Assembly: GCA_964549495.1 (NCBI GenBank)
Contig: CAZJWJ010000006.1
Coordinates: 22,274-86,273 of the forward strand
DNA: 64,000 nt
Reading direction: 5' to 3'
Source: an uncultured Anaerolineales bacterium
GTDB taxonomy: Bacteria; Chloroflexota; Anaerolineae; Epilineales; Epilineaceae
In this document: in pieces, positions 33,868 through 59,697 of the stretch
How the letters are laid out: each line of letters starts with the position of its first letter
How positions within the stretch are numbered: position 1 is the stretch's first letter
Translations under genes and position numbers: made by a program
Notes under the pieces: generated by a model
The model's database searches: none
What the model was told of the DNA's origin: nothing
The model's input: the letters and a program-made list of their open reading frames with translations, nothing else

Positions 33868-34198
33868 GCGCCATCTCCCCTGGTCTCACCGAAGCCGTCG
33901 ACAAGGCTTGCCGCTCGCGTCATGAAGCGTCCGATCCGAGCGATGCTTCCGTACAAGACCTTAACCCGCGGCCAGGTCGGAATTGGACAGCCTTGTCAGG
34001 TCCGGGGTGGGCCGCCGGGAGTTTGCGGATTCTGACAGGGCGATACCAGCGTGCCGTCCCATCGCTCACGCCCTGCGCCCGTGGATTCTTGGGGCGGTGT
34101 ACAATCCGCGTGCGCAGGGATGTCGTGCGGCCTCGGCTCGACCGGTGTCGCAGTCCGAGATCCGGGGTTCGATCGGATGGTCAGGCGGAGGGGAAGGG

Positions 34199-39306: not shown

Positions 39307-39337
39307 GCTCTTGTCTCCCTCGATCTCGAATTGCGGA

Positions 39338-40390: not shown

Positions 40391-40941
40391 GAGCGTCGAC
40401 CTCCGCGCTCGGCCGAGGAGTCTTCGGCCAGACGCTCGGTGGGCACCTGGATGTAGAGCAGGCCCGAGCGGAGTTCCAGCGGATAGCGCGGCAGCGACTG
40501 GCCGGCCTCGGCCGGCGGCCCTTCGGTGGCCACGCCCGAGGGGTCGAATACCCCGTTGTGACAGGGGCAGAAGAAGCGATCGTTCTGGGCCTGCCAATGC
40601 ACCTGGCAACCCAGATGCGGACAGACGCTGGAGAGCGCCACGAAGTCCTCCACGCCGCCGGCCTCGCCCTGGCGGGCGATGTTGATCGTCTCGCCGTTGG
40701 GCGCGCGGTACATCATCGCCGCGCCCGGCGCCAGCTCGTCGGCGCGGGCCAGGAACATCCACTGCCGCGCCGGATCGCCCGCCGGGTAGAGGTAGCGCAT
40801 CGCCAGGCGCGCGAAGTTGCCGTAGCCGGCCACCAGCCCCAGGCCCATCGCCACTCCGGACAGCCGGGCCAGAAAGCCGCGCCGGCTGCTGCCCGCGCCC
40901 GGGTCGGACGGGGCGGAAGAAGGCTTGTCGCTCGGGTCCAT
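40387..40941 (-). CDS. Rieske [2Fe-2S] subunit with Tat signal
   Basis: Twin-arginine motif SRRGFLARL. Cluster boxes CPHLGC and CPCHNG. ATG at 40941 is preceded by GAGGAGG; alternative ATG at 40977. Confidence 0.9.
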   Translation of the reverse strand: MDPSDKPSSAPSDPGAGSSRRGFLARLSGVAMGLGLVAGYGNFARLAMRYLYPAGDPARQWMFLARADELAPGAAMMYRAPNGETINIARQGEAGGVEDFVALSSVCPHLGCQVHWQAQNDRFFCPCHNGVFDPSGVATEGPPAEAGQSLPRYPLELRSGLLYIQVPTERLAEDSSAERGGRRS

Positions 40942-41039
40942 GCGCGCCTCCTCGGGTCCACGGGTCTCGTCGAGCATGCATTGTTCACGGCATCTTTTTG
41001 CTGTCAAGCGTAAGCAAAATACCCCTTCCGTGCCGCTCA

Positions 41040-41053: not shown

Positions 41054-41136
41054 AGACGCACCTTCTTGCTGGCGATAGGCTGGTCTCGAGGTCGAGTTCC
41101 GAAGATCCGGTCTCGAGGATGGCGAAGGAGGCGGTC

Positions 41137-42162
41137 ATGACCTCGGAGGGTCCGAGCAAGGAGATGAGCGTGGCGCAGGTCCTGGCCCGGTGGCCGGAGA
41201 CCACCGCCGTGTTCCTCTCCCTGAGAACCGCCTGTCCGGGCTGTGCCCTGTCCCGTTTCTGCAGCCTGTCCGACGTGGCCCGCGAGTACGCGCTGCCCGT
41301 CGAAGAGATCCTCGAACGCCTGCAGGAGGCCATCGCCAGTCGAGTCGACGCAGCCGAGGGCTCGGAGGCATCGGCCTCCGAGCGCGGCCCCTCGATCGAC
41401 GACCCCTTCGAGAGCCCGCGGCGCTCGCTCCGGGCCGCGGCGGCCATCCTGCTCTTGGCCGGCCTGATCCAAGCCTGCGGCGGCATGGCGGATCCCCCTC
41501 CCGGAGCGGCCGTGGACGAGGCCGGCGCGCGGGTCGCGGCGGCTTCCGATCGGAGCCCCTCCGGCGACCCCGCGGCGATCGACGAGCAACCGGCATCGGA
41601 TCCGTCGCCGACCCCGGCCGGCCTGCGCGGCGAGCCGATCCTGCCCGAGCGCCCGGCCCCCGACTTCCTGCTGCAGGGTCCGGGCGGTGCCGACTGGCGC
41701 CTGTCCGAAGCTCGCGGTCGCGTGGTCGCGCTCTTCTTCGGCTACACCCACTGCCCCGACGTCTGCCCGCAGACGCTCAACCGGGTCCGGCAAGCCCTGC
41801 TGCAGCTCGATGACGACCAAGCCGCCGAGGTCCTATCGGTCCTGATCACCGTCGATCCCGAGCGCGACAGCGCCGAGCGACTCGAGCGCTACGTGACCGG
41901 TTTCGGTGCGGGCTTCGTCGGACTGCGCGGCTCGCCGGAGGCGATCGCGGACGTGGCCGCGGGCTACGGGGTTCGCTACGAGAAGGAGCTGCCCGATGGC
42001 GCCGACCCGCAGGTCGCCGCCGAAAACTACAGCGTCGCCCACTCCGGCCGGGTCTTCCTGATCGACGCGGCCGGCCAATTGCGGACCAGCTTCATCGGTC
42101 CCTTCACGCCCGAAGAGATGGCGCAGGACCTGCGCCTCTTGCTCGCAGAGCGCCGGCCCTGA
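41137..42162 (+). CDS. SCO1/SenC copper chaperone with N-terminal DUF1858-like domain and TM anchor
   Basis: N-terminus MSVAQVLARWPETTAVFLSLRTACPGCALSRFCSLSDVAREYALPVEEILERLQ (DUF1858-like). TM AAAILLLAGLIQA. SCO1 core ALFFGYTHCPDVCPQTL ... YSVAHSGRVFLID. ATG at 41137 has an AAGGAGG SD; alternative ATG at 41119. Confidence 0.8.
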   Translation: MTSEGPSKEMSVAQVLARWPETTAVFLSLRTACPGCALSRFCSLSDVAREYALPVEEILERLQEAIASRVDAAEGSEASASERGPSIDDPFESPRRSLRAAAAILLLAGLIQACGGMADPPPGAAVDEAGARVAAASDRSPSGDPAAIDEQPASDPSPTPAGLRGEPILPERPAPDFLLQGPGGADWRLSEARGRVVALFFGYTHCPDVCPQTLNRVRQALLQLDDDQAAEVLSVLITVDPERDSAERLERYVTGFGAGFVGLRGSPEAIADVAAGYGVRYEKELPDGADPQVAAENYSVAHSGRVFLIDAAGQLRTSFIGPFTPEEMAQDLRLLLAERRP

Positions 42163-42178
42163 GATGGCCGGACGCTTG

Positions 42179-42235
42179 GATCACCGATCTCGAACCGTTC
42201 ACCGAACTCGATCACCGATTCCGATCACGAGGAGG
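42179..42235 (+). repeat. Direct 13-nt repeats G(A/T)TCACCGA(A/T)YYC immediately upstream of nosZ
   Basis: GATCACCGATCTC (42179-42191), GTTCACCGAACTC (42197-42209), GATCACCGATTCC (42210-42222), and a partial GATCACGAGGAGG (42223-42235) that runs into the nosZ SD. Confidence 0.5.
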
Positions 42236-42241
42236 AATGCA

Positions 42242-44329
42242 GTGAAACGCGCAATGACCATCATGGCCCTGCTGTTGGTCGTGCCGGCCCTGGTCTTCGG
42301 CTGCCGGAGACAGGACGTCGACACCAGCGGTCAGCCCCGCCCCGAAGAAGCCCAGACGGGCGCCGGCGATGCCCGACCGGGCGCCGGTGCGGCCGTCTCC
42401 GGGCTGAGCGACACCGCGGCCGACATCGCCGCCGAGCGCGGCCTTTCACCGGATGACGTCGAGGCCGCCCTCAAGACCTTCATGCCTTCGGGTACGCACG
42501 ACGAGTACCTGATGTTCGCCTCGGGCGGCCATAGCGGGCAGGTGCTGGTCATCGGCATGCCCTCGATGCGCCTGCTCAAGGTCATCGCCGTCTTCACGCC
42601 CGAGCCCTGGCAGGGCTGGGGCTTCGGCGCCGACGGCACCGACGCGGTGCTGGACGGCGGCGACGTGCGCGAGGGCCGCCAGGTGCGCTGGGCCGACACC
42701 CACCACCCGGCGCTCTCGGAGACCGAGGGCGACTACGACGGCCAGTTCGTCTTCATCAACGACAAGGCCAATGCCCGCATCGCGGTGGTCGACCTGCGGG
42801 ACTTCGAGACCAAGCAGATCGTCAAGAACCCGGTCAGCGACGTCGACCACGGCGGTGCCTTCGTCACCCCCAACACCGAGTGGATCGTCGAGGGCGGCCA
42901 GTACGCCACGCCGCTGGGCTTCGAGTACGCCGGCCTGGACGAGTACGACGAGCGCTACCGCGGCCACGTCACCTTCTGGAAGTTCGACCGCGAGGCGGGC
43001 CGCATCGACATCGAGCAGAGCTTCGCCATGGAGCTGCCGCCCTACTGGCAGGACCTGAGCGATGCCGGCAAGCTGGTCAGCGAGGGCTGGGTCTTCCTCA
43101 ACAGCTTCAACGCCGAGCGCGCCACCGGCAACGATGGCAGCGAGAACGGCGTCAACTTCGAGTCCGGCGCTTCGCAGAACGACATGGACTACATGCACCT
43201 GATCAACCTCGATCGAGCGGCCGAGGTGGCGGTGTCCGGTCCGACCACCGAGATCAACGGCATGCCGGTCATCTCGATGGACACCGCCATCGAAGAGGAC
43301 CTGCTCTACCTGATGCCCGAGCCCAAGAGCCCGCACGGCGTCGACGTGACGCCCGGCGGCGACTACCTGGTGGTCTCCGGCAAGCTCGACCCGCACGTGA
43401 CCGTCTACAGCTGGGAGAAGATCCAGGCGGCCATTGGGGCCGGCCAGTGGGACACGGACGACTACGGCCTGCCGATCCTGCCCTTCGACGACGTGGTCGA
43501 GACCCAGGTCGAGGTCGGTCTGGGCCCGCTGCACACCCAGTTCGACGGCCAGGGCTACGCTTACACCAGCCTCTTCCTGGACACCGCCGTCGCCCGCTGG
43601 AGCCTGGGCGGGGACTACACGCCCGAGGGCCAGGAGCCCTGGAGCCTCATCACCAAGACGCCGGTGCAGTACAACGTCGGCCACCTGGCGGCCGCCGAGG
43701 GCGATACGGTCAGCCCGGACGGCAAGTTCCTGGTCTCGCTCAACAAGTGGGCCGTCGACCGCTTCCACAACGTCGGCCCGCTCCTGCCGCAGAACTTCCA
43801 GCTCTTGGACATCAGCGCGGGCGGCACCGACATGCCGGTGATCTACGACATGCCCATCGGCATCGGCGAGCCGCATTACGCCCAGATCATCAAGGCCGAC
43901 AAGCTCTCCGGCTGGGAGACCTACCCCGAGGTGGGCTGGGATCCGCTGGAGCAGGCGCCGGCCGAGAACGCGGCCATGCCGGGCGAGGAGCGCGTCGAGC
44001 GCGACGGCAACCAGGTCGAGATCTACATGACCGCCATCCGCAGCCACTTCACGCCCGAGCGGGTTCAACTGCGCCAGGGCGACGAGGTGACGCTGCACAT
44101 CACCAACATCGAGACCGCCCACGACGCCACGCACGGCTTCGCCATCACGGCCTACGGCGTCAACCTCTCGCTGGAGCCGGGCGAGAGCGAGACGGTGACC
44201 TTCACCGCCGACGAGCCGGGCGTCTTCCCCTACTACTGCACCGAGTTCTGCTCGGCGCTGCACCTGGAGATGCTGGGCTACATGCTGGTCGAGCCGGCCG
44301 AGGCGGCCGCGCAGGCCATCACGCCCTGA
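42242..44329 (+). CDS. nosZ: Nitrous-oxide reductase, Sec/lipoprotein-type signal (clade II / atypical)
   Basis: CuA site HDATHGFAI...YYCTEFCSALHLEMLGYMLVEP. N-terminal propeller DEYLMFASGGHSGQVLVIGMPSMRLLKVIAVF. The signal VKRAMTIMALLLVVPALVFGC has no twin-arginine. GTG at 42242 follows GAGGAGGA. Confidence 0.95.
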   Translation: MKRAMTIMALLLVVPALVFGCRRQDVDTSGQPRPEEAQTGAGDARPGAGAAVSGLSDTAADIAAERGLSPDDVEAALKTFMPSGTHDEYLMFASGGHSGQVLVIGMPSMRLLKVIAVFTPEPWQGWGFGADGTDAVLDGGDVREGRQVRWADTHHPALSETEGDYDGQFVFINDKANARIAVVDLRDFETKQIVKNPVSDVDHGGAFVTPNTEWIVEGGQYATPLGFEYAGLDEYDERYRGHVTFWKFDREAGRIDIEQSFAMELPPYWQDLSDAGKLVSEGWVFLNSFNAERATGNDGSENGVNFESGASQNDMDYMHLINLDRAAEVAVSGPTTEINGMPVISMDTAIEEDLLYLMPEPKSPHGVDVTPGGDYLVVSGKLDPHVTVYSWEKIQAAIGAGQWDTDDYGLPILPFDDVVETQVEVGLGPLHTQFDGQGYAYTSLFLDTAVARWSLGGDYTPEGQEPWSLITKTPVQYNVGHLAAAEGDTVSPDGKFLVSLNKWAVDRFHNVGPLLPQNFQLLDISAGGTDMPVIYDMPIGIGEPHYAQIIKADKLSGWETYPEVGWDPLEQAPAENAAMPGEERVERDGNQVEIYMTAIRSHFTPERVQLRQGDEVTLHITNIETAHDATHGFAITAYGVNLSLEPGESETVTFTADEPGVFPYYCTEFCSALHLEMLGYMLVEPAEAAAQAITP

Positions 44330-44447
44330 CCCGACGACTTTCTCTCCTCCAAGCCGCGCGTGGGGGATGGGACCGCTCCCGTCCCCCACGCCGGCCGGGC
44401 CCGAGCCGAAGCCCGGCCGGCGGCGCTCCAACCGGGAGCCTCAGGAC

Positions 44448-45107
44448 ATGAACGACATCGATGAGAGGGTCGCAGGAAGCCGAAGCGTCACGCCTCCGAC
44501 CGACGCCAGCGACCATCGCCACGGCCCCTACCGCCTCTCCAGCCTCTTCTTCGCCGGCGCGGCCGCGCTGGTCGTGGCCTCCATCTTCTTCCCCTACTGG
44601 CGAATGCGCCTCAACGCGCCGCAATACCCCAAGGGCCTCTTCCTGACGGTCTACATCGACCATCTGCAAGGCGACATCTCCGAGATCGACGGCCTCAACC
44701 ACTACATCGGCATGGCCCCGCTGAGCGAGGCGGCCGGCATCGAGCGCCTGCTGGCGCCGGTGGCCATGGCGGCCATCGTGCTGATGGTGCTGGCCACGGC
44801 CTTCGTGCACCGCAAGTGGTTTGCGCCGCTGACCCTGCCGGCCATGCTCCTGCCCCTGGTCTTTCTGGGCGACATGTACTATTGGCTGCGCAGCTACGGT
44901 CAGAACCTGGACCCCAGCGCCGCCCTCTCCAGCGCCATCAAGCCCTTCACCCCCACCCTGATCGGCCACGGCGAGATCGGCCAGTTCTCGACCGATGCCA
45001 GCCTCGAGCCCGGCTTCTGGCTGGCCGTCGGCGCTAGCATCCTGATCAACGTCGGCCTGCACTACCGCCGCAAGGCACGGCGCGAGCTGCTCGGGGAGGC
45101 CGGCTGA
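44448..45107 (+). CDS. nosB: NosB-like integral membrane protein of clade II nos clusters
   Basis: Position directly after nosZ. Four TM segments (LSSLFFAGAAALVVASIFF, LLAPVAMAAIVLMVLATAF, LTLPAMLLPLVFLGDMYYW, GFWLAVGASILINVGL). The assignment rests on synteny and topology only. Confidence 0.6.
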   Translation: MNDIDERVAGSRSVTPPTDASDHRHGPYRLSSLFFAGAAALVVASIFFPYWRMRLNAPQYPKGLFLTVYIDHLQGDISEIDGLNHYIGMAPLSEAAGIERLLAPVAMAAIVLMVLATAFVHRKWFAPLTLPAMLLPLVFLGDMYYWLRSYGQNLDPSAALSSAIKPFTPTLIGHGEIGQFSTDASLEPGFWLAVGASILINVGLHYRRKARRELLGEAG

Positions 45108-46639
45108 TGGACCCGCTTCGTTGGCCGAGCTGCGAAGTCGCGGCATACCTCGCGCCGCGCCTCCTGCGCTTGGCGATGCTGGCCGCTGCCTTGGTCGCCG
45201 CCCCCCAAGGCGGTCATCCGGTCGCGGCTCAGGACCTCACCGAAGACGAAATCGAGGTGGCGAGCTTCGACGGACGTCGACTCCAGGTCGGAGCGGAGCT
45301 CGACTACTCGACGCTGGCCGAGGCCCTGTCCGAGGCGCGGGACGGCGATCGCATCGAGGTCCATGGTGGCCATCACACCGGGCCCTTCGCCATCGACGTG
45401 GCCATCGCGCTGGTCGGCATCGACCGGCCGGTGCTCGACGGCGGCGGCGAGGGCGACGTGCTGCGCCTGGGCGCGGCGCCGTCCCGCGTGGCCGGCTTCG
45501 AGATCCGGGGCAGCGGCGATCGCAACGACCGCGAGGATGCCGGCATCCGGGCCGATGCCGGGCCGGTCTCCATCGAGGACAACCACCTGGTCGACGTGCT
45601 CTACGGCATCAACCTCAAGCAGGCGCCCGGCAGCTTGATCGCCCGCAACGTCGTGCGGGGCCGCGACATCCACATCGCCCGCCGCGGCGACGGGATCCGC
45701 ATCTGGGAGAGCCACGGCACGCGCATTCTCGACAACCGGGTCGAGGCCGGGCGCGACGTGGTGATCTGGTATTCCGAGGACCTCTTGATCCGCGGCAATA
45801 CCGTGCGCGACGGGCGCTACGGGCTGCATTACATGTACTCCCACGCCAGCCGCATCGAGGCCAATCGCCTCGAGCGCAACGCGGTGGGCGCCTTCCTGAT
45901 GTACTCCAAACAGCTGCTGATCGAGGGCAATGCGATGACCGGCAACCACGGCCCCTCGGGCTACGGGCTGGCGCTCAAGGACAGTGACGACATCCAGGTG
46001 ATCGGCAACGTGATGGCCGGCAACCGGGTCGGCCTCTACCTGGACGGTACGCCCTCCAGCCGCGAGGCGCAGGGCATCGTCGAGCGCAACCACCTGGCCT
46101 ACAACGACATCGGCGCCCTGCTGCTGCCGGCGGTGAAGCGCAACCGCTTCGCGGCCAACAGCTTCGTCGAGAACGGCCAGCAGGTGGCGCTGACCAGTCG
46201 CGGCTCGGCCGATGGCAACGACTGGACGCCCGACGGCCGGGGCAACTACTGGAGCGACTACGCCGGCTACGATGCCGACGGCGATGGCCTGGGCGACTTG
46301 CCCTACCAGCCCGCCAGCCTCTTCGACGACCTGTTGACGCGCCAGCCCGAGCTGCGGCTCTTCAGCATGAGCCCGGCCCAGGGCATGCTCGACCTGGCCG
46401 CCCGGGCCTTCCCGGTCTTCCGCCCGCCGGCCATCCTGACCGACGCTGCCCCGCGCACCCGCCCCCTGCCCTCGCCCGTGGCGGCTCCAGAGCGAAAGGG
46501 AGGACCGCTGGTCGCATTGGCCCTGGGCCTGGTGGCCTCGGCGGCACTCCTGATCGCGTGGGGACGAGCCCTGGACGCGACCACGCCCGGGCGCGAGCGA
46601 CCGCGCGCGCTGCCCGAGCCCACGAGGATCCGACCATGA
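45107..46639 (+). CDS. nosD: NosD periplasmic beta-helix accessory protein
   Basis: Parallel beta-helix repeats NHLVDVLYGINL, GDGIRIWESHGTRILDNRV, GRYGLHYMYSHASRIEANRLERNAVGAFLMYS, GYGLALKDSDD. The start overlaps the nosB stop (TGATG). Confidence 0.9.
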   Translation: MDPLRWPSCEVAAYLAPRLLRLAMLAAALVAAPQGGHPVAAQDLTEDEIEVASFDGRRLQVGAELDYSTLAEALSEARDGDRIEVHGGHHTGPFAIDVAIALVGIDRPVLDGGGEGDVLRLGAAPSRVAGFEIRGSGDRNDREDAGIRADAGPVSIEDNHLVDVLYGINLKQAPGSLIARNVVRGRDIHIARRGDGIRIWESHGTRILDNRVEAGRDVVIWYSEDLLIRGNTVRDGRYGLHYMYSHASRIEANRLERNAVGAFLMYSKQLLIEGNAMTGNHGPSGYGLALKDSDDIQVIGNVMAGNRVGLYLDGTPSSREAQGIVERNHLAYNDIGALLLPAVKRNRFAANSFVENGQQVALTSRGSADGNDWTPDGRGNYWSDYAGYDADGDGLGDLPYQPASLFDDLLTRQPELRLFSMSPAQGMLDLAARAFPVFRPPAILTDAAPRTRPLPSPVAAPERKGGPLVALALGLVASAALLIAWGRALDATTPGRERPRALPEPTRIRP

Positions 46640-47523
46640 CCGAGACCATGATCCACGCGGAGGCGCTGCGCGTCCGCTTCGGGCACGCGACCGTGCTGGA
46701 TTCGCTGAGCTTCGAGCTGCCGGCCGGCGGCAGCCTGGCCCTGTGGGGCGAGAACGGTGCCGGCAAGACCACCGCCATCCGGGCGCTGCTGGGCCTCCTG
46801 CCTTTCGAGGGCCGCGTGACCATCGCCGGCCATCCGCTGCCAGAGCGGGGCCGTCAGGCGCGCGCCCAGGTGGGCTACGTGCCCCAACAGCTGGCCTTCT
46901 ACGAGGACATGCCGGCCCTGGCCTTGCTGCGCTACTTCGCCGGACTGCGCGGCACGCCGCGTGACCAGGCGCCGGCCTTGCTGGAGCGCGTCGGCCTGGG
47001 CGACCAGGCCAAGAAGGCCGCCGGCGCCCTCTCTGGCGGCATGCGCCAACGCCTAGCCCTGGCGGTGGCCCTGCTGGGCCAGCCGCCCATCCTGATCCTC
47101 GATGAGCCGACGGCCAGCCTGGATCGCGAGGCGCGGGCGGACTTCGGGCAGCTGCTGGCCGAGCAGCGCGCGGCCGGCCGGGCGCTGCTCTTCACCTCGC
47201 ACCGCATCGAGGAGGTGGTCGCCTTGGCCGACCAGGTGATCGTGCTAACCGGTGGCCGCGAGCGCTTGCGCTGCGAGGCCGGCCAGCTCGAGCGTGCGCT
47301 GCGACCCGAGACGATCCTGCGCATCGCTCTGTCCGAGGCGGGGATCGAGACCGCGCTGTCGGTGCTGACCAGCCAGGGTTTCGAGGCCCGCCGCAACGGT
47401 CACGGCGTCAAGGTCCGCGTGGCCACCGGCGAGCGGGCCGCGCCCCTGTCGGCCCTGGCCCGCGCCGGCATTCCGCCCATCGACTTCCAACTGGAGGAGG
47501 CGCGCACATGGCCCCCCGAGTGA
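46636..47523 (+). CDS. nosF: NosF ABC-transporter ATPase
   Basis: Walker A GENGAGKTT, signature LSGGMRQRL, Walker B ILILDEPTASLD. ATGA overlap with nosD. Confidence 0.85.
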   Translation: MTETMIHAEALRVRFGHATVLDSLSFELPAGGSLALWGENGAGKTTAIRALLGLLPFEGRVTIAGHPLPERGRQARAQVGYVPQQLAFYEDMPALALLRYFAGLRGTPRDQAPALLERVGLGDQAKKAAGALSGGMRQRLALAVALLGQPPILILDEPTASLDREARADFGQLLAEQRAAGRALLFTSHRIEEVVALADQVIVLTGGRERLRCEAGQLERALRPETILRIALSEAGIETALSVLTSQGFEARRNGHGVKVRVATGERAAPLSALARAGIPPIDFQLEEARTWPPE

Positions 47524-48338
47524 TCCTGCTGGTGGCCCGCAAGGAGGTGCGCGACGCCCTGCGCAACCGCTGGTTCCTGCTGTATGCCATCGGCTTCGCC
47601 GTCCTGGCCCTGGCCCTCTCGCGCCTGAGCCTGAGCGCGGGCAGCGCGGCCGGCTTCAGCGGCTTCGGTCGCACCGCCGCCAGCCTGGTCAACCTGGTGC
47701 TCCTGGTCGTGCCTCTGATGGGCCTGACCCTGGGCGCCGGCAGCCTGGCCGGCGAGCGCGAGCGCGGCACCCTGGCCGCCCTGCTCTCTCAGCCCGTCTC
47801 GCGCCGCGAGGTCTTGCTCGGCAAGTTCCTCGGCCTGGCCCTGGCGCTCTGCGCCGCCCTGGCCCTGGGCTTCGGCCTGGCCGGATTGGCGGTGGGCGCC
47901 GGCGGCGGGGCCGTCGGCGCCGAGGCCTACGCCGGCCTCCTGGGCTTCACGTTGCTCTTGGCCCTTGCGATGTTGGCCCTGGGCCTGCTCATCTCCTCCC
48001 TGTCCCGACAGGTCGGCACGGCCACCGGCGTGGCGCTCTTCGCCTGGCTGGCGCTGGTCTTCCTGGGCGATTTGGGCCTCATGGGCAGCGCCATGACCAT
48101 GCGCATGGACGTGGGCACGCTTCTGGCGCTGGGCCTGGTCAACCCGCTATCCAGCTTCAAGATCGCCGCCGTCGGCGCCATCACCGGCAGCCTGGACGTG
48201 CTGGGGCCGGCCGGTGTCTACGCCACCCGCCACTACGGCGCGGCCTTGCCGGCCATCCTGGCCGGCCTGCTCGTCGCCTGGTGTCTGGCGCCCTTGGCAG
48301 CCGCCGGCTGGATCTTCGAGGAGAGGGGGATCCGATGA
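47508..48338 (+). CDS. nosY: NosY ABC-2-type permease
   Basis: Six-TM ABC-2 permease (VARKEVRDALRNRWFLLYAIGFAVLALAL ...). It overlaps nosF by 16 nt and nosL by 4 nt. Confidence 0.8.
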   Translation: MAPRVILLVARKEVRDALRNRWFLLYAIGFAVLALALSRLSLSAGSAAGFSGFGRTAASLVNLVLLVVPLMGLTLGAGSLAGERERGTLAALLSQPVSRREVLLGKFLGLALALCAALALGFGLAGLAVGAGGGAVGAEAYAGLLGFTLLLALAMLALGLLISSLSRQVGTATGVALFAWLALVFLGDLGLMGSAMTMRMDVGTLLALGLVNPLSSFKIAAVGAITGSLDVLGPAGVYATRHYGAALPAILAGLLVAWCLAPLAAAGWIFEERGIR

Positions 48339-48889
48339 TGAACCGCCCGACCTTTGGTCGCCTCGAATTCGGTCGGCGACCGGCGAGCGTCACCGCTCTC
48401 GCCATCCTGTTTGGGCTGCTGTTCGTGCTGACCGGGACCCTCACGGGCTGCGGACCGGACACCGATCCGCTGGCCCCGCCGGAGATCCGCTACGGTGAGG
48501 ACGTCTGCGACGCCTGCCAGATGATCATCTCCGACCCCCGCTTCGCTGCGGCGACCGTCGTCGAGGTAGATGGGGCGAGCCAGGCGCGGCGCTTCGACGA
48601 CATCGGCGATCTGCTGGAGTACCACCGGGAGGATCCGGATCTGGTGGTCTTGGCCTGGTACGTCCACGACTACGACAGCGAAGCCTGGCTGGACGCCCGT
48701 CGGGCGCACTACGTCCGCGCCGAGGGCATCCGCAGCCCGATGGGCTTTGGCTTGGCGGCCTTCGCCGAGCCCGAGCGAGCCGAGGCATTCGCTGCCGAGA
48801 TGGCGGGCGAGGTCCTCGACTTCGAGACCCTGCTCGGCCGGCCGCCAGGCGGGTCGACGGCAAGCGAGTCACCGGGCAGCTTTCCCTGA
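48335..48889 (+). CDS. nosL: NosL copper-chaperone lipoprotein
   Basis: Lipobox LTGC. EDVCDACQMIISDPRFAA ... GIRSPMGFGLAAF is typical of NosL. ATGA overlap with nosY. Confidence 0.85.
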   Translation: MMNRPTFGRLEFGRRPASVTALAILFGLLFVLTGTLTGCGPDTDPLAPPEIRYGEDVCDACQMIISDPRFAAATVVEVDGASQARRFDDIGDLLEYHREDPDLVVLAWYVHDYDSEAWLDARRAHYVRAEGIRSPMGFGLAAFAEPERAEAFAAEMAGEVLDFETLLGRPPGGSTASESPGSFP

Positions 48890-48953: not shown

Positions 48954-49412
48954 ATGCGAACGATGAACTGGATCCGCCGGATGACGCTCGCCCTGGCGCT
49001 GCTGACCATGGCCACCGGTGCCATGGCCTGCAACGGCTCCGAGCCCGCCGATCCCGCCCCGCCCGATTCCGCCGATTCGGCCGAAGGCTCGAGCGACGAC
49101 GCGGCCGATGCCGAGCTGCCACCGGGCCTGGTCGCCGGTGACCCGGCCAATGGGGAAGAGCGCTTCACGCCCTGCGCCGGCTGTCACGGTGCCGATGCCA
49201 CCGGCATCGAGGGACTGGGCAAGAACCTGCGCACCAGCGAGTTCCTGGACGGTCTGAGCGACGCCGAGGCCGTGGCCTTCTTGAAGGAGGGCCGGCCGGC
49301 CGGCCATCCGCTCAACACCACCGGAGTGGACATGCCGCCCAAGGGCGGCGACCCGACGCTGAGCGAACAAGACCTGCTGGACATCGTGGTCTATTTGCGA
49401 GACCTCGAGTGA
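48954..49412 (+). CDS. Membrane-tethered monohaem c-type cytochrome
   Basis: Signal MRTMNWIRRMTLALALLTMATGAMAC, an acidic linker, one CAGCH motif and a distal Met region (GVDMPPKGG). GAGGAGAG SD. The track start at 48570 is rejected. Confidence 0.8.
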   Translation: MRTMNWIRRMTLALALLTMATGAMACNGSEPADPAPPDSADSAEGSSDDAADAELPPGLVAGDPANGEERFTPCAGCHGADATGIEGLGKNLRTSEFLDGLSDAEAVAFLKEGRPAGHPLNTTGVDMPPKGGDPTLSEQDLLDIVVYLRDLE

Positions 49413-49560: not shown

Positions 49561-49740
49561 ATGACCGAAGAAATGCGCGACGCGACGGTCCACGAGGAAG
49601 GGGAGGCACATCCCTGGCAGCAGGTGCTGCTGGACGATGTCTTCCTGTTGATGATGGCCGGCCTGGTGGTGCCGACCCTGTTCTACATCGTCTGGGGCCT
49701 GATGGAACTGGCCCAGGTGCCGGTCTTCAGCGCGCCATGA
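49561..49740 (+). CDS. Single-TM small subunit (ba3 subunit IIa-like position) of the HCO operon
   Basis: 59 aa with one TM (VFLLMMAGLVVPTLFYIVWGLM). AGGAGAGGAG SD. Its stop overlaps the subunit II start (ATGA). Confidence 0.55.
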   Translation: MTEEMRDATVHEEGEAHPWQQVLLDDVFLLMMAGLVVPTLFYIVWGLMELAQVPVFSAP

Positions 49741-50312
49741 ATCAGACCCACACCGGGGACGCGGGTGCGACCATCGCCCGCAACAGCACCCTGATCGCGC
49801 CGGAGGGCCGTTGGTGGGCGCCGCTGGGACGGGACGAGCGCCTGTGGGTGCTGGTCACCCTGATCTGGGCGCTGGCCATGTTCGCCATGATGCAGCTGAT
49901 CTGGCCGCGCATCGGCGATCAGCAGACCGTCATCGAGACCTTCCGCGTCGAGCCGACGGCCTTCCAGGGGCTCGTCACCGAGTTCACCGAAACCCATCAG
50001 GTCGAGGAGCGCGCCGGAATGCCGGTGGTCGCGCCGCCGCCCGGTCCGGTCTACCTGCTGGCCATGCGCTACCAGTTCCGGCCCATCCTGCGCCTGCAGC
50101 AGGGTGAGACCTACGAATTGCACATGAGCTCGCTGGACGTGCAGCACGGCCTGTCGCTGCAGCCGGACAACGTCAACTTCCAGGTGCTGCCGGGTTACGT
50201 GACCGTCCTGAAGATCACGCCCAAGGAGGTGGGGGACTACGTGGTGGTCTGCAACGAGTACTGCGGTACCGGTCATCACCTAATGTTGGGTGGAATCGAG
50301 GTGGTCCAATGA
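49737..50312 (+). CDS. Haem-copper oxidoreductase subunit II (one TM + CuA cupredoxin)
   Basis: Single TM LWVLVTLIWALAMFAMMQLIW. CuA ligands HGLSLQP ... CNEYCGTGHHLM (CxExCGxxHxxM). Confidence 0.85.
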   Translation: MNQTHTGDAGATIARNSTLIAPEGRWWAPLGRDERLWVLVTLIWALAMFAMMQLIWPRIGDQQTVIETFRVEPTAFQGLVTEFTETHQVEERAGMPVVAPPPGPVYLLAMRYQFRPILRLQQGETYELHMSSLDVQHGLSLQPDNVNFQVLPGYVTVLKITPKEVGDYVVVCNEYCGTGHHLMLGGIEVVQ

Positions 50313-52018
50313 GCGCCACCCGCGAGACGACCATCGGGCGTATCTGCCAGGTGACCGGCCTGACGGTCGATCCCAAGGCCGAGCGCCTGCTCTTGTTCAA
50401 CGCCGTCACGGCCGTGCTCTGGCTGGCCACCGGCGGCACTTTGGCGCTGCTCACGCTCCTGACGCGCTGGCAGGATGTCGGGCTGATCACCGACTCGGAA
50501 TGGTTCTACCGGATCATCGGCGCCCACGGCGCGGCCATGCTGCTCTTCTGGATCCTCTTCTTCGAGGTGGCCGGCCTGATCTTCGGCGGCAGCATCCTGC
50601 TCAGCCGGCGCATGCGCGCGCCGCGCATGGGCTGGCTGGCCTACTGGATGATGCTCGTCGGCTCCCTGGCCACCTTCGTGATCATGCTCTCCGGCGATGC
50701 CACGGTGATGTTCACCGCCTACCCGCCGCTGGAGGCCACCAGCTGGTTCTACTTCTGGATCCTGATCTTCGCCGTCGGCGCCCTGGTGGCGGTGCTGCAC
50801 TTCTTGGTCAACGTCGTGGCCGCGCGGCTCGACGGGATGCGCACCCTGCCTCTCTTCACCTTCGCGCTGGTGGTGGCGGCCATCCTGGCCCTCTTCACGC
50901 TCGTCTCCGGCACCTTGGCCATCGTGCCGGCCTGGCTCTGGAGCCTGGGCCTGATCGACCACGTCGACCCCGGCAGCTACCGGCTGCTCTTCTGGGGCTT
51001 CGGCCACGGGGCGCAGCAGGTCAACCTGGCGGCCATGGTCGGCATCTGGTACGCCCTGGCCACGCTGACCACCGGCGCCAGGCCGATCAACGAAGGGCTC
51101 AGCCGGGGGGCCTTCGTCCTCTACGTGCTCTTCATCCAGATGGGCTCGATCCACCACATCCTGGTCGATCCCGGACTGGGCGAGTGGGCGCGCGGCATCA
51201 ACACCAGCTACTTCCTCTACGCGGCGGTGCTTGGCAGCATGATCCACGCCTTCACCATCCCGGCCAGCGTCGAGGTGGCCCAGCGCGGCGCCTCGCGTGG
51301 CAAGGGGCTGCTCGGCTGGCTGCGCGCCGCGCCCTGGTCCTCGCCGGGCTTCGCCGCCTTGGCGGTGAGCTTTGCGATGTTCGGCATCCTGGGCGGCATC
51401 AGCGGCGTGATCATGGGCGGGGTGCAGGTGAACATGATCGCCCACAACACGCTGATCGTGCCGGCCCACTTCCACATGACGGTGGTGGCCGGCACGACCC
51501 TGGCCTTCATGGGCATCAGCTACATCCTGGTTCCCTTGATCGTGCGCCGCGACCTCTTCCTGCCTTCCTGGGCCCGATGGCAGCCCTACATCTTCGGGCT
51601 GGGCATGCTGATCTTCGGCATCGGCATGGGCCTGGCCGGCCATGCCGGCTTGCCGCGCCGCCACTTCGACATCACCTTCAACGGCTTGCCCTTGGCCCAA
51701 GGGATCTTCGAGACGCCCTTCGTCGATCGGACCTTGGCCATGATGGGCATCGGCGGTCTGATCGCCATCACCGCCGGCGCCATGTTCGTGGTGGTGGCGG
51801 CCGGCACCGTCTTCTTGGGCAAGCGCAACGACTGCCCGGAGGTCGGCGATTTGGATGCACGTGCCCTGACGCCGGAGAGCCGCGAGCCGGTGCACGCCGG
51901 CCGCTTCGAAGCGCCGGGCACCTTCGTCCTGGCCACGGTCTGGCTGGCGCTCTTCGTGCTGCTCTATGCCTACTCCTGGCGCGAGCTGGGCCAGGTCGCC
52001 TGGATCATCGGGCGCTGA
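50309..52018 (+). CDS. Haem-copper oxidoreductase subunit I, atypical active site (candidate NO reductase of the B-family-related type)
   Basis: HCO His ligands are present: GAHGAAML, FWGFGHGAQQVN, SIHHILVD, VPAHFHMTVV. The residue 4 positions after the first CuB/FeB His is Gln (HGAQQ) rather than the Tyr of GHPxVY. ATGA overlap with subunit II. Confidence 0.9.
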   Translation: MSATRETTIGRICQVTGLTVDPKAERLLLFNAVTAVLWLATGGTLALLTLLTRWQDVGLITDSEWFYRIIGAHGAAMLLFWILFFEVAGLIFGGSILLSRRMRAPRMGWLAYWMMLVGSLATFVIMLSGDATVMFTAYPPLEATSWFYFWILIFAVGALVAVLHFLVNVVAARLDGMRTLPLFTFALVVAAILALFTLVSGTLAIVPAWLWSLGLIDHVDPGSYRLLFWGFGHGAQQVNLAAMVGIWYALATLTTGARPINEGLSRGAFVLYVLFIQMGSIHHILVDPGLGEWARGINTSYFLYAAVLGSMIHAFTIPASVEVAQRGASRGKGLLGWLRAAPWSSPGFAALAVSFAMFGILGGISGVIMGGVQVNMIAHNTLIVPAHFHMTVVAGTTLAFMGISYILVPLIVRRDLFLPSWARWQPYIFGLGMLIFGIGMGLAGHAGLPRRHFDITFNGLPLAQGIFETPFVDRTLAMMGIGGLIAITAGAMFVVVAAGTVFLGKRNDCPEVGDLDARALTPESREPVHAGRFEAPGTFVLATVWLALFVLLYAYSWRELGQVAWIIGR

Positions 52019-52076: not shown

Positions 52077-52988
52077 TCACCGAGATGTCGAATCCTCATC
52101 GGAGGCCGGCGCGCCGTCGAGCGCGCCGGCCTCTCGCGCCAGCAGCCGCAGCAGCAGGACCAGGTAGATCAGGCCGCCGGCGAACATGATCCAGCCGCCG
52201 AGCCGCTGGTCGGCCAGGGCGCTCATGCCCCACAGCCCGGTGGAGCGCGCGGCGTACCAGGGGTAGAGCGGCCGGGCGGAGAAGATCAGGGCCAAGGCCA
52301 CCAGCATGCCGGCCATGCTGCTGGCGAAGCAGAGGCCGTAGACGGCGTGGCTGCTGCCCGATCGTCGATCTCGATCGCCCGGAGACTCGCCGAGCCCTCG
52401 AAGCACCAACCACCAGAAGGCCATCGCGCTGCCCAGCATCAAGAGGTGCTCGGCCCCGTGAATCGGCCGGCTGCGCAGGGCGGCGTCGTAGGCCGGCGGC
52501 AGATGCCAGACCAGCAGGTTGAGGTTGAAGACCAGGCCGACCAGCCAGGGCCGGCGGGCCGGGGCCAGCAGGCGGCCGATCCAGCGTTCCAGCTCCGGTC
52601 GCGGGCCGGCCAGGAGGCCGGGCAATGCCTGCCGGGCGACCGCCAAGGGGCGCGCATAGAAGAGCAGCGGCGGCGCGATCTGCAGCAGGACCAAGTGCTG
52701 CACCATGTGCGCCGCCAGGGCGTCGTCGCTGTAGACCTCGATCGGCCCGCCGAAGGCGACGGCCAGCGAGGTCAGGCCGGCCAGGAAGGCCAGGAGATGG
52801 CGGATCCCGAAGGCCCGCTCGGCGGATGCCCGGCGCCAGGCCCAGAAGTAGGCCAGGCCGGACAGCGCCACGAGCAGTGCGAGCCCGGGTGCCAAGGCCA
52901 GGATCGGCCAGTCGCCGGTACCGCTGGTATGCGCCGGCCCGGCGCGGGGCCCGAAAGCCAGCGGCCCGGCGGGATTCCATCGGCTCAT
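52077..52988 (-). CDS. ctaG: CtaG-type (Bacillus caa3_CtaG family) cytochrome oxidase assembly factor
   Basis: Polytopic membrane protein with AAHMVQHLVLLQIAPPLL, VWHLPPAYDAAL, HGAEHLLMLGSAMAFWW, ADQRLGGWIMFAGG. The start MSRWNP at 52988 is in frame with the track ORF, whose first 54 aa are rejected. Confidence 0.8.
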   Translation of the reverse strand: MSRWNPAGPLAFGPRAGPAHTSGTGDWPILALAPGLALLVALSGLAYFWAWRRASAERAFGIRHLLAFLAGLTSLAVAFGGPIEVYSDDALAAHMVQHLVLLQIAPPLLFYARPLAVARQALPGLLAGPRPELERWIGRLLAPARRPWLVGLVFNLNLLVWHLPPAYDAALRSRPIHGAEHLLMLGSAMAFWWLVLRGLGESPGDRDRRSGSSHAVYGLCFASSMAGMLVALALIFSARPLYPWYAARSTGLWGMSALADQRLGGWIMFAGGLIYLVLLLRLLAREAGALDGAPASDEDSTSR

Positions 52989-53113
52989 GCGTTCAGAACT
53001 CCCTGCACGGTTCGGATATGCGAGCAGGCGCCGAGGCGCTTGTCGCCGGACCGTGTCGAGGTGTCGACATCGAGGCTTCGGCCAAGGCACGGAGGTGCTT
53101 CGTGAAGGATAAC

Positions 53114-55015
53114 ATGCCCGTCCGATCGAGTCGCTGGCGACGTTGGGCATTGCTGCTCGGCGTCGCCGGCTTGCTGTTCGGCCTTTCGGCCTGCCAGAAT
53201 CCTGCAGCCCAGCCCGAGGCGACGCCGGCCGTCGATTCGCCGTCCGAAGATGCGGCCGCAGATCCAGAGTCAGATCCGGCGACCTCGGACGAGGGCTCCG
53301 GTGACGCCGGTCCGCGTTCCAGCTCGGATGAGCCCGCGGCAGAGGCGGTCGACCTGGCCGCGATGGATGCCGAGTGGCCGACCGAGATGCTCAACGGCGA
53401 GGCCGGGCCGACCAAGAGCACCGTTCTCGACGCCATCCGCGCGCGCGACCTGCCGGAGACCTTGCCCTTGACCGAGGACTTCGCCGGCGAGGACTTTGCC
53501 GGGCGCCCGCTGATCGAGACGGCGCGCGAGTCGGGTATCGTCATCCTTGACTGGCCGCCGCCCTCGACCAGCGATCTGCCCGGCGATCGGTGGGCCGAGC
53601 GATTCGAGGCCTGGCTGGCCGAGTTCGCCGAGATCGAGCATACCGAGATCCACACCTGGGAGATCCAGCAGCTGGATCGCCCCGATGTCGAAGCTGCCAT
53701 CGAGGTCGTCGAGGCGCTCTGGGTGGTCGGCACGACGCCCGAGGGGCGCCGGCGCGAGGATCGGCTCTACCTGGTCTTCGACCTGATCAAGGATCCGACG
53801 CTGGTCGAGGTAGCCGATGCCGAAGATCAGGCGACCACGCAAGAATCCGAGGAGGCGGCCTCGGAGCCGGAGGACCTCGGCTGGCGCATCGCCGGAGTGC
53901 GCAGTCGCGAGGGCCGGACGGTGATCGCCGAGGGGCGCTACTTCCAGGACGTGACCGAGCAGGTCTTGCCGGGCGGCTACGATCAGTCGGGCGCCGAGGT
54001 CTATACCGCGGCCGGCCCCGCGCTGGGCGACTTCGACGGTGACGGCGACCTGGACCTGTTCATGCCGCGCATGCACGCGCCGATGCGGCTATACGCCAAC
54101 GACGGCAGCGGCCGCTTCCGCGATGTCACCGAGGACTGGGGGCTGCTGGATCGGCGCAGCCTGGAAGGCAGCATCAGCGGTGCCTTCGCCGATGTCGACC
54201 AGGATGGCTTGCGCGACCTCATGGTGCTCTTCCAGGGTCGCGGCCTGCGCGTCTACCGCAACGAGGGCAGCGCCTTCCGCGACATCACCGGACCGGTCGA
54301 TCTGGCCGGACCGGGCCAGTGGCAGACCCTGTCGGTGGCCGACGTCGACGGTGACGGCTTCCCGGATGCCTACCTGACCAACTACAACCTCATCGACACG
54401 ACGCATCAACCCGAGAACTATGTCGATGCCACCGACGGCCTGCCCAACGTGCTCTTGCGCAACACGGGTGATGGCGGCTTCGAGGATGCGACCGAAAGCC
54501 TGGGCCTGGACGTCGACAACCGGCGCTGGACCTACGCCTCGGCCTTCGCCGACTACGACGCCGACGGCGATGTCGACCTCTATGTGGCCAACGACTACGG
54601 TCCCAACCACCTCTTCGAAAACGATGGCGAGGGGCGCTTCCGCGACGTGACCGAGGCCTTGTCGGCCACCGACCAGGCCAACGGCATGGGCGTCAGCTGG
54701 TTGGACTTCGATGGCGACCTGGACCTGGATCTCTACATCTCCAACATGCAGAGCTTCGCCGGCAACCGCATCACCCGCCTGGAGCACTTTCCGGGTAGCG
54801 GCGAGCAGTCGGCGCTCTACCGGCGCTTCTCGCAGGGCAGCACGCTTCTCCGCAACGACGGCGACGATGGATTCACCGAGTGGAGCGAGCAGGCCGGCGT
54901 CAAGGCCGCCTTCTGGGCCTGGGGCGCGGCGCCCTTCGACTACGACGCCGACGGCGACGAGGACATCTTCAGCGCGGCCGGCTTCTACACCGGGCCCAAC
55001 GCGGCCGACACCTGA
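53114..55015 (+). CDS. CRTAC1/ASPIC-like lipoprotein with FG-GAP/VCBS repeats; reading frame ends at in-frame TGA 55013-55015
   Basis: Lipobox LLFGLSAC. Repeats GDFDGDGDLDLFM, ADVDQDGLRDLMV, ADVDGDGFPDAYL, ADYDADGDVDLYVANDYGPNHLFENDG, LDFDGDLDLDLYISN, FDYDADGDEDIF. The track start at 52625 (antisense to ctaG) is rejected. Confidence 0.75.
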   Translation: MPVRSSRWRRWALLLGVAGLLFGLSACQNPAAQPEATPAVDSPSEDAAADPESDPATSDEGSGDAGPRSSSDEPAAEAVDLAAMDAEWPTEMLNGEAGPTKSTVLDAIRARDLPETLPLTEDFAGEDFAGRPLIETARESGIVILDWPPPSTSDLPGDRWAERFEAWLAEFAEIEHTEIHTWEIQQLDRPDVEAAIEVVEALWVVGTTPEGRRREDRLYLVFDLIKDPTLVEVADAEDQATTQESEEAASEPEDLGWRIAGVRSREGRTVIAEGRYFQDVTEQVLPGGYDQSGAEVYTAAGPALGDFDGDGDLDLFMPRMHAPMRLYANDGSGRFRDVTEDWGLLDRRSLEGSISGAFADVDQDGLRDLMVLFQGRGLRVYRNEGSAFRDITGPVDLAGPGQWQTLSVADVDGDGFPDAYLTNYNLIDTTHQPENYVDATDGLPNVLLRNTGDGGFEDATESLGLDVDNRRWTYASAFADYDADGDVDLYVANDYGPNHLFENDGEGRFRDVTEALSATDQANGMGVSWLDFDGDLDLDLYISNMQSFAGNRITRLEHFPGSGEQSALYRRFSQGSTLLRNDGDDGFTEWSEQAGVKAAFWAWGAAPFDYDADGDEDIFSAAGFYTGPNAADT

Positions 55016-55036
55016 AGCGTCTTCTGGCGCCAGGTC

Positions 55037-56110
55037 ATGGCGTCCGATAGCGAAGGCCAAGCGGCCGAGCGCGAAGCCGGACATCAAAACCACTTCCGAC
55101 AGCTGAGCCAGGAGGGCAAGAGCTGGAGCGGCCGCGAGCCGGACACCCTCTTCCAGAATCGCGGCGATGGCACCTACGACGAGGTCGGCCAGGTCATCGG
55201 CGTGGCCAGCCGCCTGGACAGCCGCGGCGCGGCCACCGGCGACTTGGATGGTGATGGCGATCTGGACCTGGTGGTGATGAGCCGCAACAACCCCATCATC
55301 AAGATCTATCGCAACGATACGCCGCTCGAGCAGCAGGGTCGTGTGCTGCAAGTCGACCTGGTCCATGACACATCCGGGAGCGAGGCCATCGGCGCCCGGG
55401 CCGTCGCGCGCTGCGGCGATGCCGCGGTGTTGCGCCAGGTCTCGGCCGGCTCCGGCTACCTGGCCCAATCGGCCTCGACCCTGCACTTCGGCTTGGGGGC
55501 CTGCGAGGGTCCGGCCACGCTGGAGGTGCTTTGGCCCGGCGGCCAGCGGCAGGACTTCGAGGGCCTGGAGGTCGACCGGCGCTACCGCATCGCCCAAGGC
55601 GAGGAATCGGTCGTGCGGCAGTCGCTGCGCGAGCGGAACTTCAGTGCCGGCGAGGTGGGCCCGCCGGCCGGGGACATCTCGGCGCCGCTGCCCGAGGTGC
55701 GTCTCGACTGGTTGGACGGCGAAGGCAGCTTCGAGCCGGCCGCCGGCCAGGGCATCCGCGTGCTCAACTTCTGGGCCACTTGGTGCACGGCCTGCATCGC
55801 CGAGATGCCAGACCTCGAGCGGCTCAAGGGCGAGTTTGGACCCAAGGGGGTCGAATTCGTCGGCCTGATCATGGACGAGCGCGAGCTGGAATCCGAGGTC
55901 CGCGCCTTCGCCGAGGATCGCGGCGTCAGCTACGCGCAGGCCTGGGGCACGATCGACTTCGAGAGCGACTTGGCCTCCATCGCCAACGCGCCGGCCGGCG
56001 CCATCCCGCTGACGGCGGTGGTCCAGGACGGCATCGTGCGCCACGCGGTGGCCGGCCGCATCGACCCGGGCGACATGGCCCGCCGGCTGGAGGCGCTGCT
56101 CGGGGAATAG
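55037..56110 (+). CDS. Same-frame continuation of the CRTAC1/ASPIC-like protein: last FG-GAP repeat, UnbV/ASPIC-like domain, C-terminal TlpA/ResA-like thioredoxin domain
   Basis: It is in the same frame as 53114-55015; only one TGA separates them, and sense codons resume at 55016 (SVFWRQV). LFQNRGDGTYDEVG, GDLDGDGDLDLVVMS, SGSGYLAQSASTLHFGLG..LEVLWPGG (ASPIC/UnbV-like), then VLNFWATWCTACIAEMPDL. Confidence 0.7.
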   Translation: MASDSEGQAAEREAGHQNHFRQLSQEGKSWSGREPDTLFQNRGDGTYDEVGQVIGVASRLDSRGAATGDLDGDGDLDLVVMSRNNPIIKIYRNDTPLEQQGRVLQVDLVHDTSGSEAIGARAVARCGDAAVLRQVSAGSGYLAQSASTLHFGLGACEGPATLEVLWPGGQRQDFEGLEVDRRYRIAQGEESVVRQSLRERNFSAGEVGPPAGDISAPLPEVRLDWLDGEGSFEPAAGQGIRVLNFWATWCTACIAEMPDLERLKGEFGPKGVEFVGLIMDERELESEVRAFAEDRGVSYAQAWGTIDFESDLASIANAPAGAIPLTAVVQDGIVRHAVAGRIDPGDMARRLEALLGE

Positions 56111-59575: not shown

Positions 59576-59697
59576 GGCAGGGCTCTGTCAGGAGTCGCCC
59601 CGACCATCAATCCGCCTGTCCATTTTCGACATCTTGGTGTGTTGTATGATGGAGCGTGGATGCGTCGAAGCGATGTGAGCTGCAAGGAGGCTGCCCC

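Follow-up and report, generated by a model that had tools for sequence, protein, structure and literature searches.

The window analysed here is a stretch of 64,000 nucleotides from an uncultured Anaerolineales bacterium (Chloroflexota; contig CAZJWJ010000006.1, positions 22,274 to 86,273), in which a three-gene operon encodes a haem-copper oxidoreductase resembling the ba3-type (B-family) O2 reductases, with a glutamine in place of their cross-linked active-site tyrosine. The question raised by this locus is which substrate such an enzyme reduces and to which family it belongs. The three genes very probably encode a nitric oxide (NO) reductase of the eNOR family, a member of the haem-copper superfamily derived from B-type (ba3-like) O2 reductases. 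A first-pass annotation made from the sequence alone had deduced a CuA-containing, B-family-derived NO reductase from the tyrosine-to-glutamine change and the neighbouring nos genes; this deduction is supported, and the family can be given a name.

The operon and the active site of subunit I

The open reading frames are exactly those first described, namely a small IIa-like protein, a CuA-binding subunit II and a catalytic subunit I, coupled by ATGA start/stop overlaps that are visible in the DNA (49737-49740 and 50309-50312; all features are listed in Table 1). A Shine-Dalgarno sequence, AGGAGAGGAG, is found 9 nt 5' of the IIa gene, and GAGGTGG lies 5' of the third gene. Subunit I is a genuine gene and a chance reading frame is excluded, because it matches the Pfam COX1 profile (PF00115) with an E-value of 3.3e-59, has a GC content of 0.95 at third codon positions (0.69 for all positions of the window) and has 4406 homologues at E<=1e-10 in a database search; one NCBI protein is 100% identical to it.

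The closest solved structure, by sequence (2e-40, phmmer) as well as by fold, is the ba3 oxidase of Thermus thermophilus (PDB 1EHK, 3S8F). In helix VI the motif FWGFGHGAQQVN of subunit I falls without gaps on FWWTGHPIVYFW of ba3, with His233 on His233 and Gln237 on the cross-linked Tyr237, and the ba3 segment FWWTGHPIVYFWL likewise aligns to this motif without gaps (phmmer against PDB). The six histidine ligands are all kept (H73, H233, H282, H283, H387 and H389, corresponding in this order to H72, H233, H282, H283, H384 and H386 of ba3), and the first reading of the active site, six canonical histidines together with Gln-Gln in helix VI, is thus borne out by the alignment. In an alignment of 62 sequences with 44-84% identity to the query, about 80 columns do not vary.

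An AlphaFold model of subunit I, computed from a 62-sequence alignment (pLDDT 88, pTM 0.90), was compared with known structures using Foldseek; the top matches are ba3 entries (TM-scores of 0.78-0.80), followed by A-family oxidases. No solved eNOR structure was found in the PDB, and the predicted placement of Gln236 and Gln237 at the metal centre is taken from homology to ba3. The structural check that had been proposed gives a ba3-like fold, and sequence comparison a retained set of K-channel-like residues (see below), the orientation of the glutamine towards the binuclear centre being that expected from ba3.

Probable assignment to the eNOR family

The eNOR family is already known: it was named in 2008, reportedly being first defined by Hemp and Gennis with glutamine at the position of the cross-linked tyrosine as the diagnostic residue, it was characterised biochemically in 2024 and it is now routinely scored in denitrification surveys. 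The novelty implied by the first-pass annotation is not retained, since the family is a described one, counted in 547 GTDB genomes and 2,709 IMG hits (PMC11214002, Table 1). In that study (Murali et al. 2024) eNOR is characterised as derived from the B-family, as having a CuA subunit and as using a proton path like the K-channel, which includes a serine equivalent to ba3 S309. The purified enzyme of Rhodothermus marinus carries haem As, in both haem sites; NO is reduced at 0.68 per s, and O2 is not reduced with the several electron donors tried; His/Lys ligation of the low-spin haem occurs in some eNORs (PMC11214002).

The protein was assigned to eNOR because Gln237 sits gap-free on Tyr237 of ba3, where glutamine is the residue by which the family is diagnosed in the literature (PMC8756737, section 2.7.1 and Table A4); according to the same table, the position is occupied by Tyr in oxidases, Glu in cNOR and qNOR, Asn in sNOR and Gln in eNOR. 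The histidine ligands of the non-haem metal and of the haems, and a CuA-binding cupredoxin subunit (here subunit II), which also belong to the definition of eNOR, are likewise present.

For the phylogeny, 124 sequences were aligned with MAFFT and a neighbour-joining tree was inferred with 200 bootstrap replicates. The 92 sequences with Gln-Gln, subunit I of the window among them, form a single clade in 200/200 replicates, and this clade is nested within a grade of Gln-Tyr sequences, which keep the tyrosine, inside the B-like enzymes. The nesting agrees with the published origin of eNOR, which is placed as derived from an O2 reductase and closest to the “K family” of oxidases (PMC11214002; bioRxiv 10.1101/592808).

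All 92 usable clade members, from more than 10 phyla, carry the motif G-H-x-x-Q-Q-[VI]-N, and both Gln236 and Gln237 are invariant among them. Lysine replaces the second histidine of the HxH motif in three members (P0368, P0334 and a T. thermophilus plasmid copy). The clade includes an Ardenticatenales metagenome-assembled genome (MAG; 71% identity), a Zetaproteobacteria MAG, the haloarchaeon Natrarchaeobius and a Rhodothermales MAG, lineages of groups with reported eNOR, which may be counted in favour of the assignment; Balneolaceae sequences also fall in it. The window protein belongs to a Chloroflexota subclade, with 71-74% identity to proteins of Anaerolineales and Ardenticatenales MAGs; it is 62% identical to a copy on the megaplasmid of Thermomicrobium roseum and 44-47% identical to Rhodothermales and Balneolaceae sequences.

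Subunit II and the proton path

Subunit II has one transmembrane helix followed by a CuA cupredoxin domain. It scores 17.7 bits against the Pfam COX2 profile, under the gathering cut-off of 22 bits, and matches ba3 subunit II in the PDB at 1e-16 (the ba3 sequence used was checked against 1ehk_B). The CuA ligands are complete (H137, C172, E174 by its backbone O, C176, H180 and M183) and at least 90% conserved in 74 sequences, and the same degree of conservation is seen for E34, which aligns with E15(II) of ba3 at the entrance of the K-channel.

The residues compared in subunit I are those of the ba3 K-channel as reportedly described by Chang et al. 2009. S310 (S309 in ba3) and Y248 are invariant, position 316 (T315 in ba3) is Thr or Ser in most members and Ala or Cys in a few, and an invariant H313 takes the place of ba3 T312; ba3 Y244 is not retained. 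A K-channel-like set of polar residues is thus kept, and proton conduction along it is predicted.

The monohaem cytochrome c encoded between nosL and the operon, which has a lipoprotein-like signal, is plausibly an electron donor to the CuA site of the enzyme, to NosZ, or to both.

The IIa-like small subunit

The 59-residue IIa-like protein has no match in Pfam or NCBIfam. In 67 sequences from many phyla its conservation is unusually strong, the conserved columns including Q, D, P, Y and WGL, and the window protein reads PWQQ..DD..P..Y..WGL at these columns. A small gene is annotated at the same place in T. roseum and on the Thermus and Defluviimonas plasmids. By tblastn, no IIa homologue was detected beside the sister enzymes that keep the tyrosine. 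A third or IIa-like subunit is absent from the main text of the 2024 eNOR paper, in which the purified enzyme gives two bands (PMC11214002).

Gene neighbourhoods of related loci

Related loci were searched for with one genome per species, and 78 loci were returned, from Chloroflexota, Bacillota, Actinomycetota (Nitriliruptoraceae), Nitrospinota, Ca. Kryptonium, Gemmatimonadales, Kiritimatiellia, Zetaproteobacteria and others. Of the loci that could be read in this region, all but three, which have Gln-Tyr (Desulfurococcaceae, Gaiellaceae), carry G-H-x-x-Q-Q-[VI]-N. An exhaustive search of cluster representatives added the Gln-Gln sequence of Natrarchaeobius and Gln-Tyr sequences from Hodarchaeales and Thermoproteota, and tblastn searches of plasmids gave the copies in Thermomicrobium, Thermus and Defluviimonas.

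The IIa-II-I order is conserved among the relatives, subunit II being detectable in 74 of the 78 loci and a IIa homologue directly 5' of it in 59. A haem o synthase gene (ctaB), often fused to a CtaA-like half, lies directly 3' in 38/78. A CtaG homologue is found near the genes in 28/78 loci, all of the Chloroflexota type, and also in L082 and L083; Rrf2-type regulators occur near them in 13 loci and, again, in L082 and L083. SCO genes flank them in L083 and about 11 other loci, a cytochrome b gene together with SCO is near them in 11-13, and nirS in 4. The two closest relatives with usable contigs show the arrangement (SCO1)-IIa-II-I with a convergent CtaG gene and an Rrf2 gene, and the Thermus plasmid copy adjoins nirS, a multicopper oxidase gene and an Rrf2 gene. 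The window has no Rrf2 (NsrR-like) gene, whereas close relatives of the operon carry one beside CtaG.

The nos genes themselves were adjacent in 0/78 loci: NosD, NosL and NosY queries gave no matches, and the NosZ query matched only the cupredoxin domain of subunit II. The position of the operon directly downstream of a complete nos operon, on which the first-pass annotation had leaned, is real, the clade II nos cluster being confirmed by profile matches. It is nevertheless a local feature and not a family trait, because none of the related loci shows it.

Evaluation of alternative explanations

Several points weigh against the eNOR assignment. The tree was obtained by neighbour joining on a MAFFT alignment and not by maximum likelihood. 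Clustering with the R. marinus protein Rmar_0161 is suggested by way of a Rhodothermales MAG sequence (P0434, its closest proxy) and by the family diagnostics, and NO reductase activity would be carried over to the Chloroflexota-type subclade, at 44-47% identity to the Rhodothermales and Balneolaceae sequences, by family transfer. Adjacency to nos is confined to the window among the 78 loci and adds little support at the family level, and no nir, nar, nap, ctaA or ctaB gene was found within the 64 kb. Lastly, an invariant tyrosine, Tyr301, was acquired in just the clade that lost Tyr237.

The lack of a nir gene in the window bears on the possibility that an enzyme of the eNOR fold acts here on a substrate other than NO (for instance a small oxidant), or serves mainly for oxic detoxification of NO and not for respiratory denitrification. 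“NO or alternative substrates” are left open in PMC8756737, the turnover of the R. marinus enzyme is low (PMC11214002), and the Rrf2 (NsrR-like) regulators beside relatives would suit a detoxification regulon as well as respiration. The genes of the window, however, end a respiratory nos cluster and adjoin a cytochrome c, nirS adjoins the eNOR genes in several relatives, and in R. marinus eNOR is the sole NO reductase while 15N-nitrate is fully denitrified to N2 (PMC11214002). This explanation is consequently held to be quite unlikely.

The tyrosine gained in the clade is an argument for a different possibility, that of a B-like O2 reductase whose catalytic tyrosine has moved to another helix, as in the C-family cbb3 enzymes. 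Besides the Y237Q change, five columns separate the 92 eNOR-clade sequences from the sister grade and the canonical B oxidases (Tyr301, Asn298, Ala306, Ile276 and Val367). Tyr301, on helix VIII, is present in 92/92 members and absent from the Gln-Tyr grade and from the canonical B enzymes, and two further positions shift along with it, Asn298 (same helix, 92/92) and Ala306 (92/92; Leu or Val in the other sequences). E86, on helix II, follows another pattern, being invariant in both eNOR and the sister grade and Ile or Ala in canonical B enzymes. Tyr301 would be the candidate for the moved residue; in addition, Tyr237 is retained in the nearest relatives, which are presumably oxidases, and the oxidase-type assembly genes for CtaG and SCO1 are close by.

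Against such a migration, the site used in the C-family, six residues before the HH pair, is Ile276 and not tyrosine. By helix phase, Tyr301 is nine residues, or about 180 degrees, from the face with S310 and H313 that lines the Tyr237 pocket, and it probably points elsewhere. Ala306 shares the face of S310, a helical turn above it, and there probably widens the pocket that surrounds residue 237. No migrated tyrosine was seen in models of these families, and the purified R. marinus eNOR showed no O2 reduction (PMC11214002). A migrated tyrosine is rated very unlikely because all clade members carry Tyr301, and the R. marinus enzyme, which lacks O2 reductase activity, presumably does so too; the case named beforehand as the one that would overturn the NO reductase reading, an O2 reductase supplied with a tyrosine from another helix, is accordingly unsupported.

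That the genes are a decaying or non-functional oxidase paralogue, with the loss of the tyrosine as the defect, has next to no probability: nothing beyond the missing tyrosine speaks for it, whereas the metal and haem ligands are all intact, the invariant columns mentioned above extend over sequences of 44-84% identity, the operon keeps its structure in more than 10 phyla, the third-position GC content is typical of expressed genes in this genome, and neither frameshifts nor relaxed selection are seen.

Membership in other haem-copper families was considered and rejected. A true ba3 (B-family) O2 reductase is not compatible with Gln237 in place of the cross-linked His-Tyr (GHPxVY) and Ile276 at the C-family site. 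For cNOR, qNOR and nNOR, the residue at the fourth position after the histidine is Gln and not the FeB-ligating Glu, and a CuA subunit is present, which cNOR and qNOR do not have. For sNOR and bNOR, the tyrosine position holds Gln237 and not Asn (criterion of PMC8756737, Table A4), and for gNOR no histidine is replaced by Asp and the CuA ligands are present (criterion of PMC11214002).

Comparison with known systems

With the eNORs proper (R. marinus DSM 4252 Rmar_0161 and the “cytochrome a1-like haemoprotein” of Magnetospirillum magnetotacticum), the window system, taken as an eNOR, has in common the Gln for Tyr replacement, three histidines on the non-haem metal, a CuA subunit II, K-channel-like residues with the equivalent of ba3 S309, a B-type origin and, in relatives, frequent linkage to haem o/a synthase genes. 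It differs in that no ctaA or ctaB is adjacent, that its genes follow on from a clade II nos cluster and that the conserved IIa-like gene, a subunit not mentioned in the main text on the R. marinus enzyme, stands before subunit II.

The likeness to T. thermophilus ba3 comprises the IIa-II-I gene order, the six histidines, the CuA site and the equivalents of E15(II), S309, Y248 and T315. At about 25% identity, the changes from ba3 to subunit I of the window include Y237Q, V236Q, W239N, T312H, A85 to E86, and Y244 to Val or Ile (position A85 of ba3 is Ile in most other B-family sequences compared). The ba3 enzyme reduces O2, and the tested member of the eNOR family does not.

The Tyr-keeping sister grade (Hodarchaeales P0123, Thermoproteota P0128 and L072, Gaiellaceae L073 and L074; 31-44% identity to the window protein) probably corresponds to the “K family” O2 reductases of bioRxiv 10.1101/592808. 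Its members share E86, Q236, N239, Y248, N261/E262, S310 and H313 with the window protein; they keep Tyr237 and lack Tyr301, Asn298, Ile276 and Ala306.

The bNOR (qCuANOR) of Bacillus azotoformans and the sNORs are likewise B-family-derived NO reductases, and they too combine a cupredoxin subunit II with a K-like channel; sNOR has Asn at the tyrosine position (PMC8756737, Table A4), bNOR shares the active-site structure of sNOR (PMC11214002), and in the literature both are clades separate from eNOR. The cNOR and qNOR enzymes (NorB) catalyse the reaction proposed here and have the same superfamily fold, and the window protein does not have their distinguishing features.

Two further groups of related sequences were noticed. 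Seven B-like homologues (P0146, P0154, P0167, P0186, P0187, P0207 and P0235) form a haem-copper clade in 200/200 bootstraps that was matched to no named family, with F-H-x-x-H-Y in helix VI, Y-H in place of the HH pair and Y-x-H in place of the HxH haem-ligand motif. P0225, P0267, P0233 and P0251, all homologues of subunit I, either have Gln or Asn for the metal-ligand histidine of helix VI or no longer have the HH pair (FIYFIY, IFYIIHE); these sequences look degenerate or repurposed.

Proposed mechanism and significance

Under the eNOR assignment, the CuA centre of subunit II would be reduced by a cytochrome c that is periplasmic or anchored in the membrane; the one encoded next to the operon is a plausible candidate. 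Electrons would then pass to the low-spin haem (H73, H389) and on to a binuclear centre in which the high-spin haem (H387) is paired with a non-haem metal (H233, H282, H283), which could be Fe or Cu; the haem type As is known from the R. marinus enzyme. By family transfer from that enzyme, 2 NO + 2 e- + 2 H+ would be converted there to N2O + H2O, and O2 should not be reducible, as Gln237 replaces the redox-active His-Tyr cofactor needed for O2 reduction. Protons would probably be taken from the cytoplasm along the K-channel-like path E34(II), T316, H313, S310, Y248 and Q237, which would make the reaction electrogenic. The clade II NosZ encoded 5 kb upstream would use the N2O formed as its substrate, and the cluster as a whole would thus cover the steps from NO to N2; the copper centres would be supplied by SCO1, CtaG and NosL/DFY.

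A bolder version is thought unlikely, in which the Tyr301/Asn298 pair, the Ala306 pocket and Gln236/Gln237 might together donate protons or electrons at the binuclear centre in a new way, as yet undescribed for eNOR, and the enzyme of this organism might act with clade II NosZ and a shared cytochrome c as one physical or regulatory module that takes NO to N2 without release of N2O.

With an eNOR annotation, the host can be scored for the last two denitrification steps, NO to N2O to N2. Judging from the annotations of relatives, automated surveys will score such enzymes as oxidases, and an N2O source beside an N2O sink otherwise stays hidden. The features peculiar to this locus are modest ones: the probable eNOR genes appended to a clade II nos cluster, the strongly conserved IIa-like gene, and the changes at Tyr301, Asn298 and Ala306 that go with the loss of Tyr237. 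Apart from a correct annotation and a further example of how diverse eNORs are, current understanding is unchanged.

Genomic context in the window

The operon follows, in the order SCO1, nosZ, a membrane protein gene, nosD, nosF, nosY, nosL and cytochrome c, the genes of the nos cluster (Table 1). Neither a promoter nor a terminator was found between the cytochrome c and IIa genes, and co-transcription with nos may therefore occur.

Table 1. Features of the 64-kb window that belong to or adjoin the oxidoreductase operon (positions counted from the first letter of the window)
Feature	Coordinates	Strand	Evidence or remark
DUF1858-SCO1/SenC copper chaperone, head of nos cluster	41119-42162	+	PF02630, 4.5e-33
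Clade II nos cluster, nosZ to nosL (profile matches include TIGR04247, 396 bits)	42164-48889	+	
NosZ, Sec-dependent, clade II	42164-44329	+	TIGR04246, 837 bits
Membrane protein, 246 aa	44367-45107	+	between nosZ and nosD
NosD	45107-46639	+	
NosF	46633-47523	+	
NosY	47508-48338	+	
NosL	48281-48889	+	NosL Pfam
Monohaem cytochrome c, lipoprotein-like signal	48963-49412	+	PF00034, PF13442; between nosL and the operon
IIa-like single-helix small subunit, 59 aa	49561-49740	+	open reading frame; Shine-Dalgarno upstream
Subunit II, one transmembrane helix and CuA cupredoxin domain, 191 aa	49737-50312	+	ba3 subunit II match in PDB
Subunit I (catalytic), very probably eNOR type, 569 aa	50309-52018	+	PF00115, 3.3e-59; Gln-Gln clade
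Codons of H233-G-A-Q236-Q237 (CuB/FeB His ligand, then Gln replacing cross-linked Tyr)	51005-51019	+	sequence
His233 codon	51005-51007	+	within motif FWGFGHGAQQVN
Gln237 codon	51017-51019	+	within motif FWGFGHGAQQVN
Caa3_CtaG-type oxidase assembly factor, convergent with operon	52077-53150	-	PF09678, 1.6e-48

The SCO1/SenC gene that opens the nos cluster ends 1 bp before the start of nosZ, and its product carries a fused N-terminal domain of the DUF1858 or “hybrid-cluster-protein-associated redox disulfide” type. The 246-residue membrane protein encoded between nosZ and nosD has no Pfam or NCBIfam match, and its position suggests an uncharacterised nos accessory protein. A regulator of the Crp/FNR family (33983-34933, + strand) is encoded about 7 kb 5' of the cluster.

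Divergent from the SCO1-nos cluster, the region 37501-40981 (- strand) carries the genes of a cytochrome b/b6-subunit IV fusion and of a multihaem cytochrome c of 601 aa; the combination of cytochrome b and SCO noted above for other loci also lies 3' of the eNOR genes there, in unrelated organisms (Nitrospinota, Defluviimonas plasmid), which hints at a dedicated quinol-oxidising module. In the listed reading frame of cytochrome b, the first ~200 codons are rich in Arg and Gly and are probably untranslated.

Further away, the region 15980-22148 (- strand) encodes a Metallophos (Mre11-like) protein, a HerA helicase and a NurA-domain reading frame, which together resemble the archaeal-type HerA-NurA end-resection module. 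Large proteins with von Willebrand factor A domains are encoded at 23647-25689, 32752-33867, 34997-36763 and 59656-63237, and a pair of FG-GAP/ASPIC-UnbV proteins (52625-56110) is located immediately 3' of CtaG.

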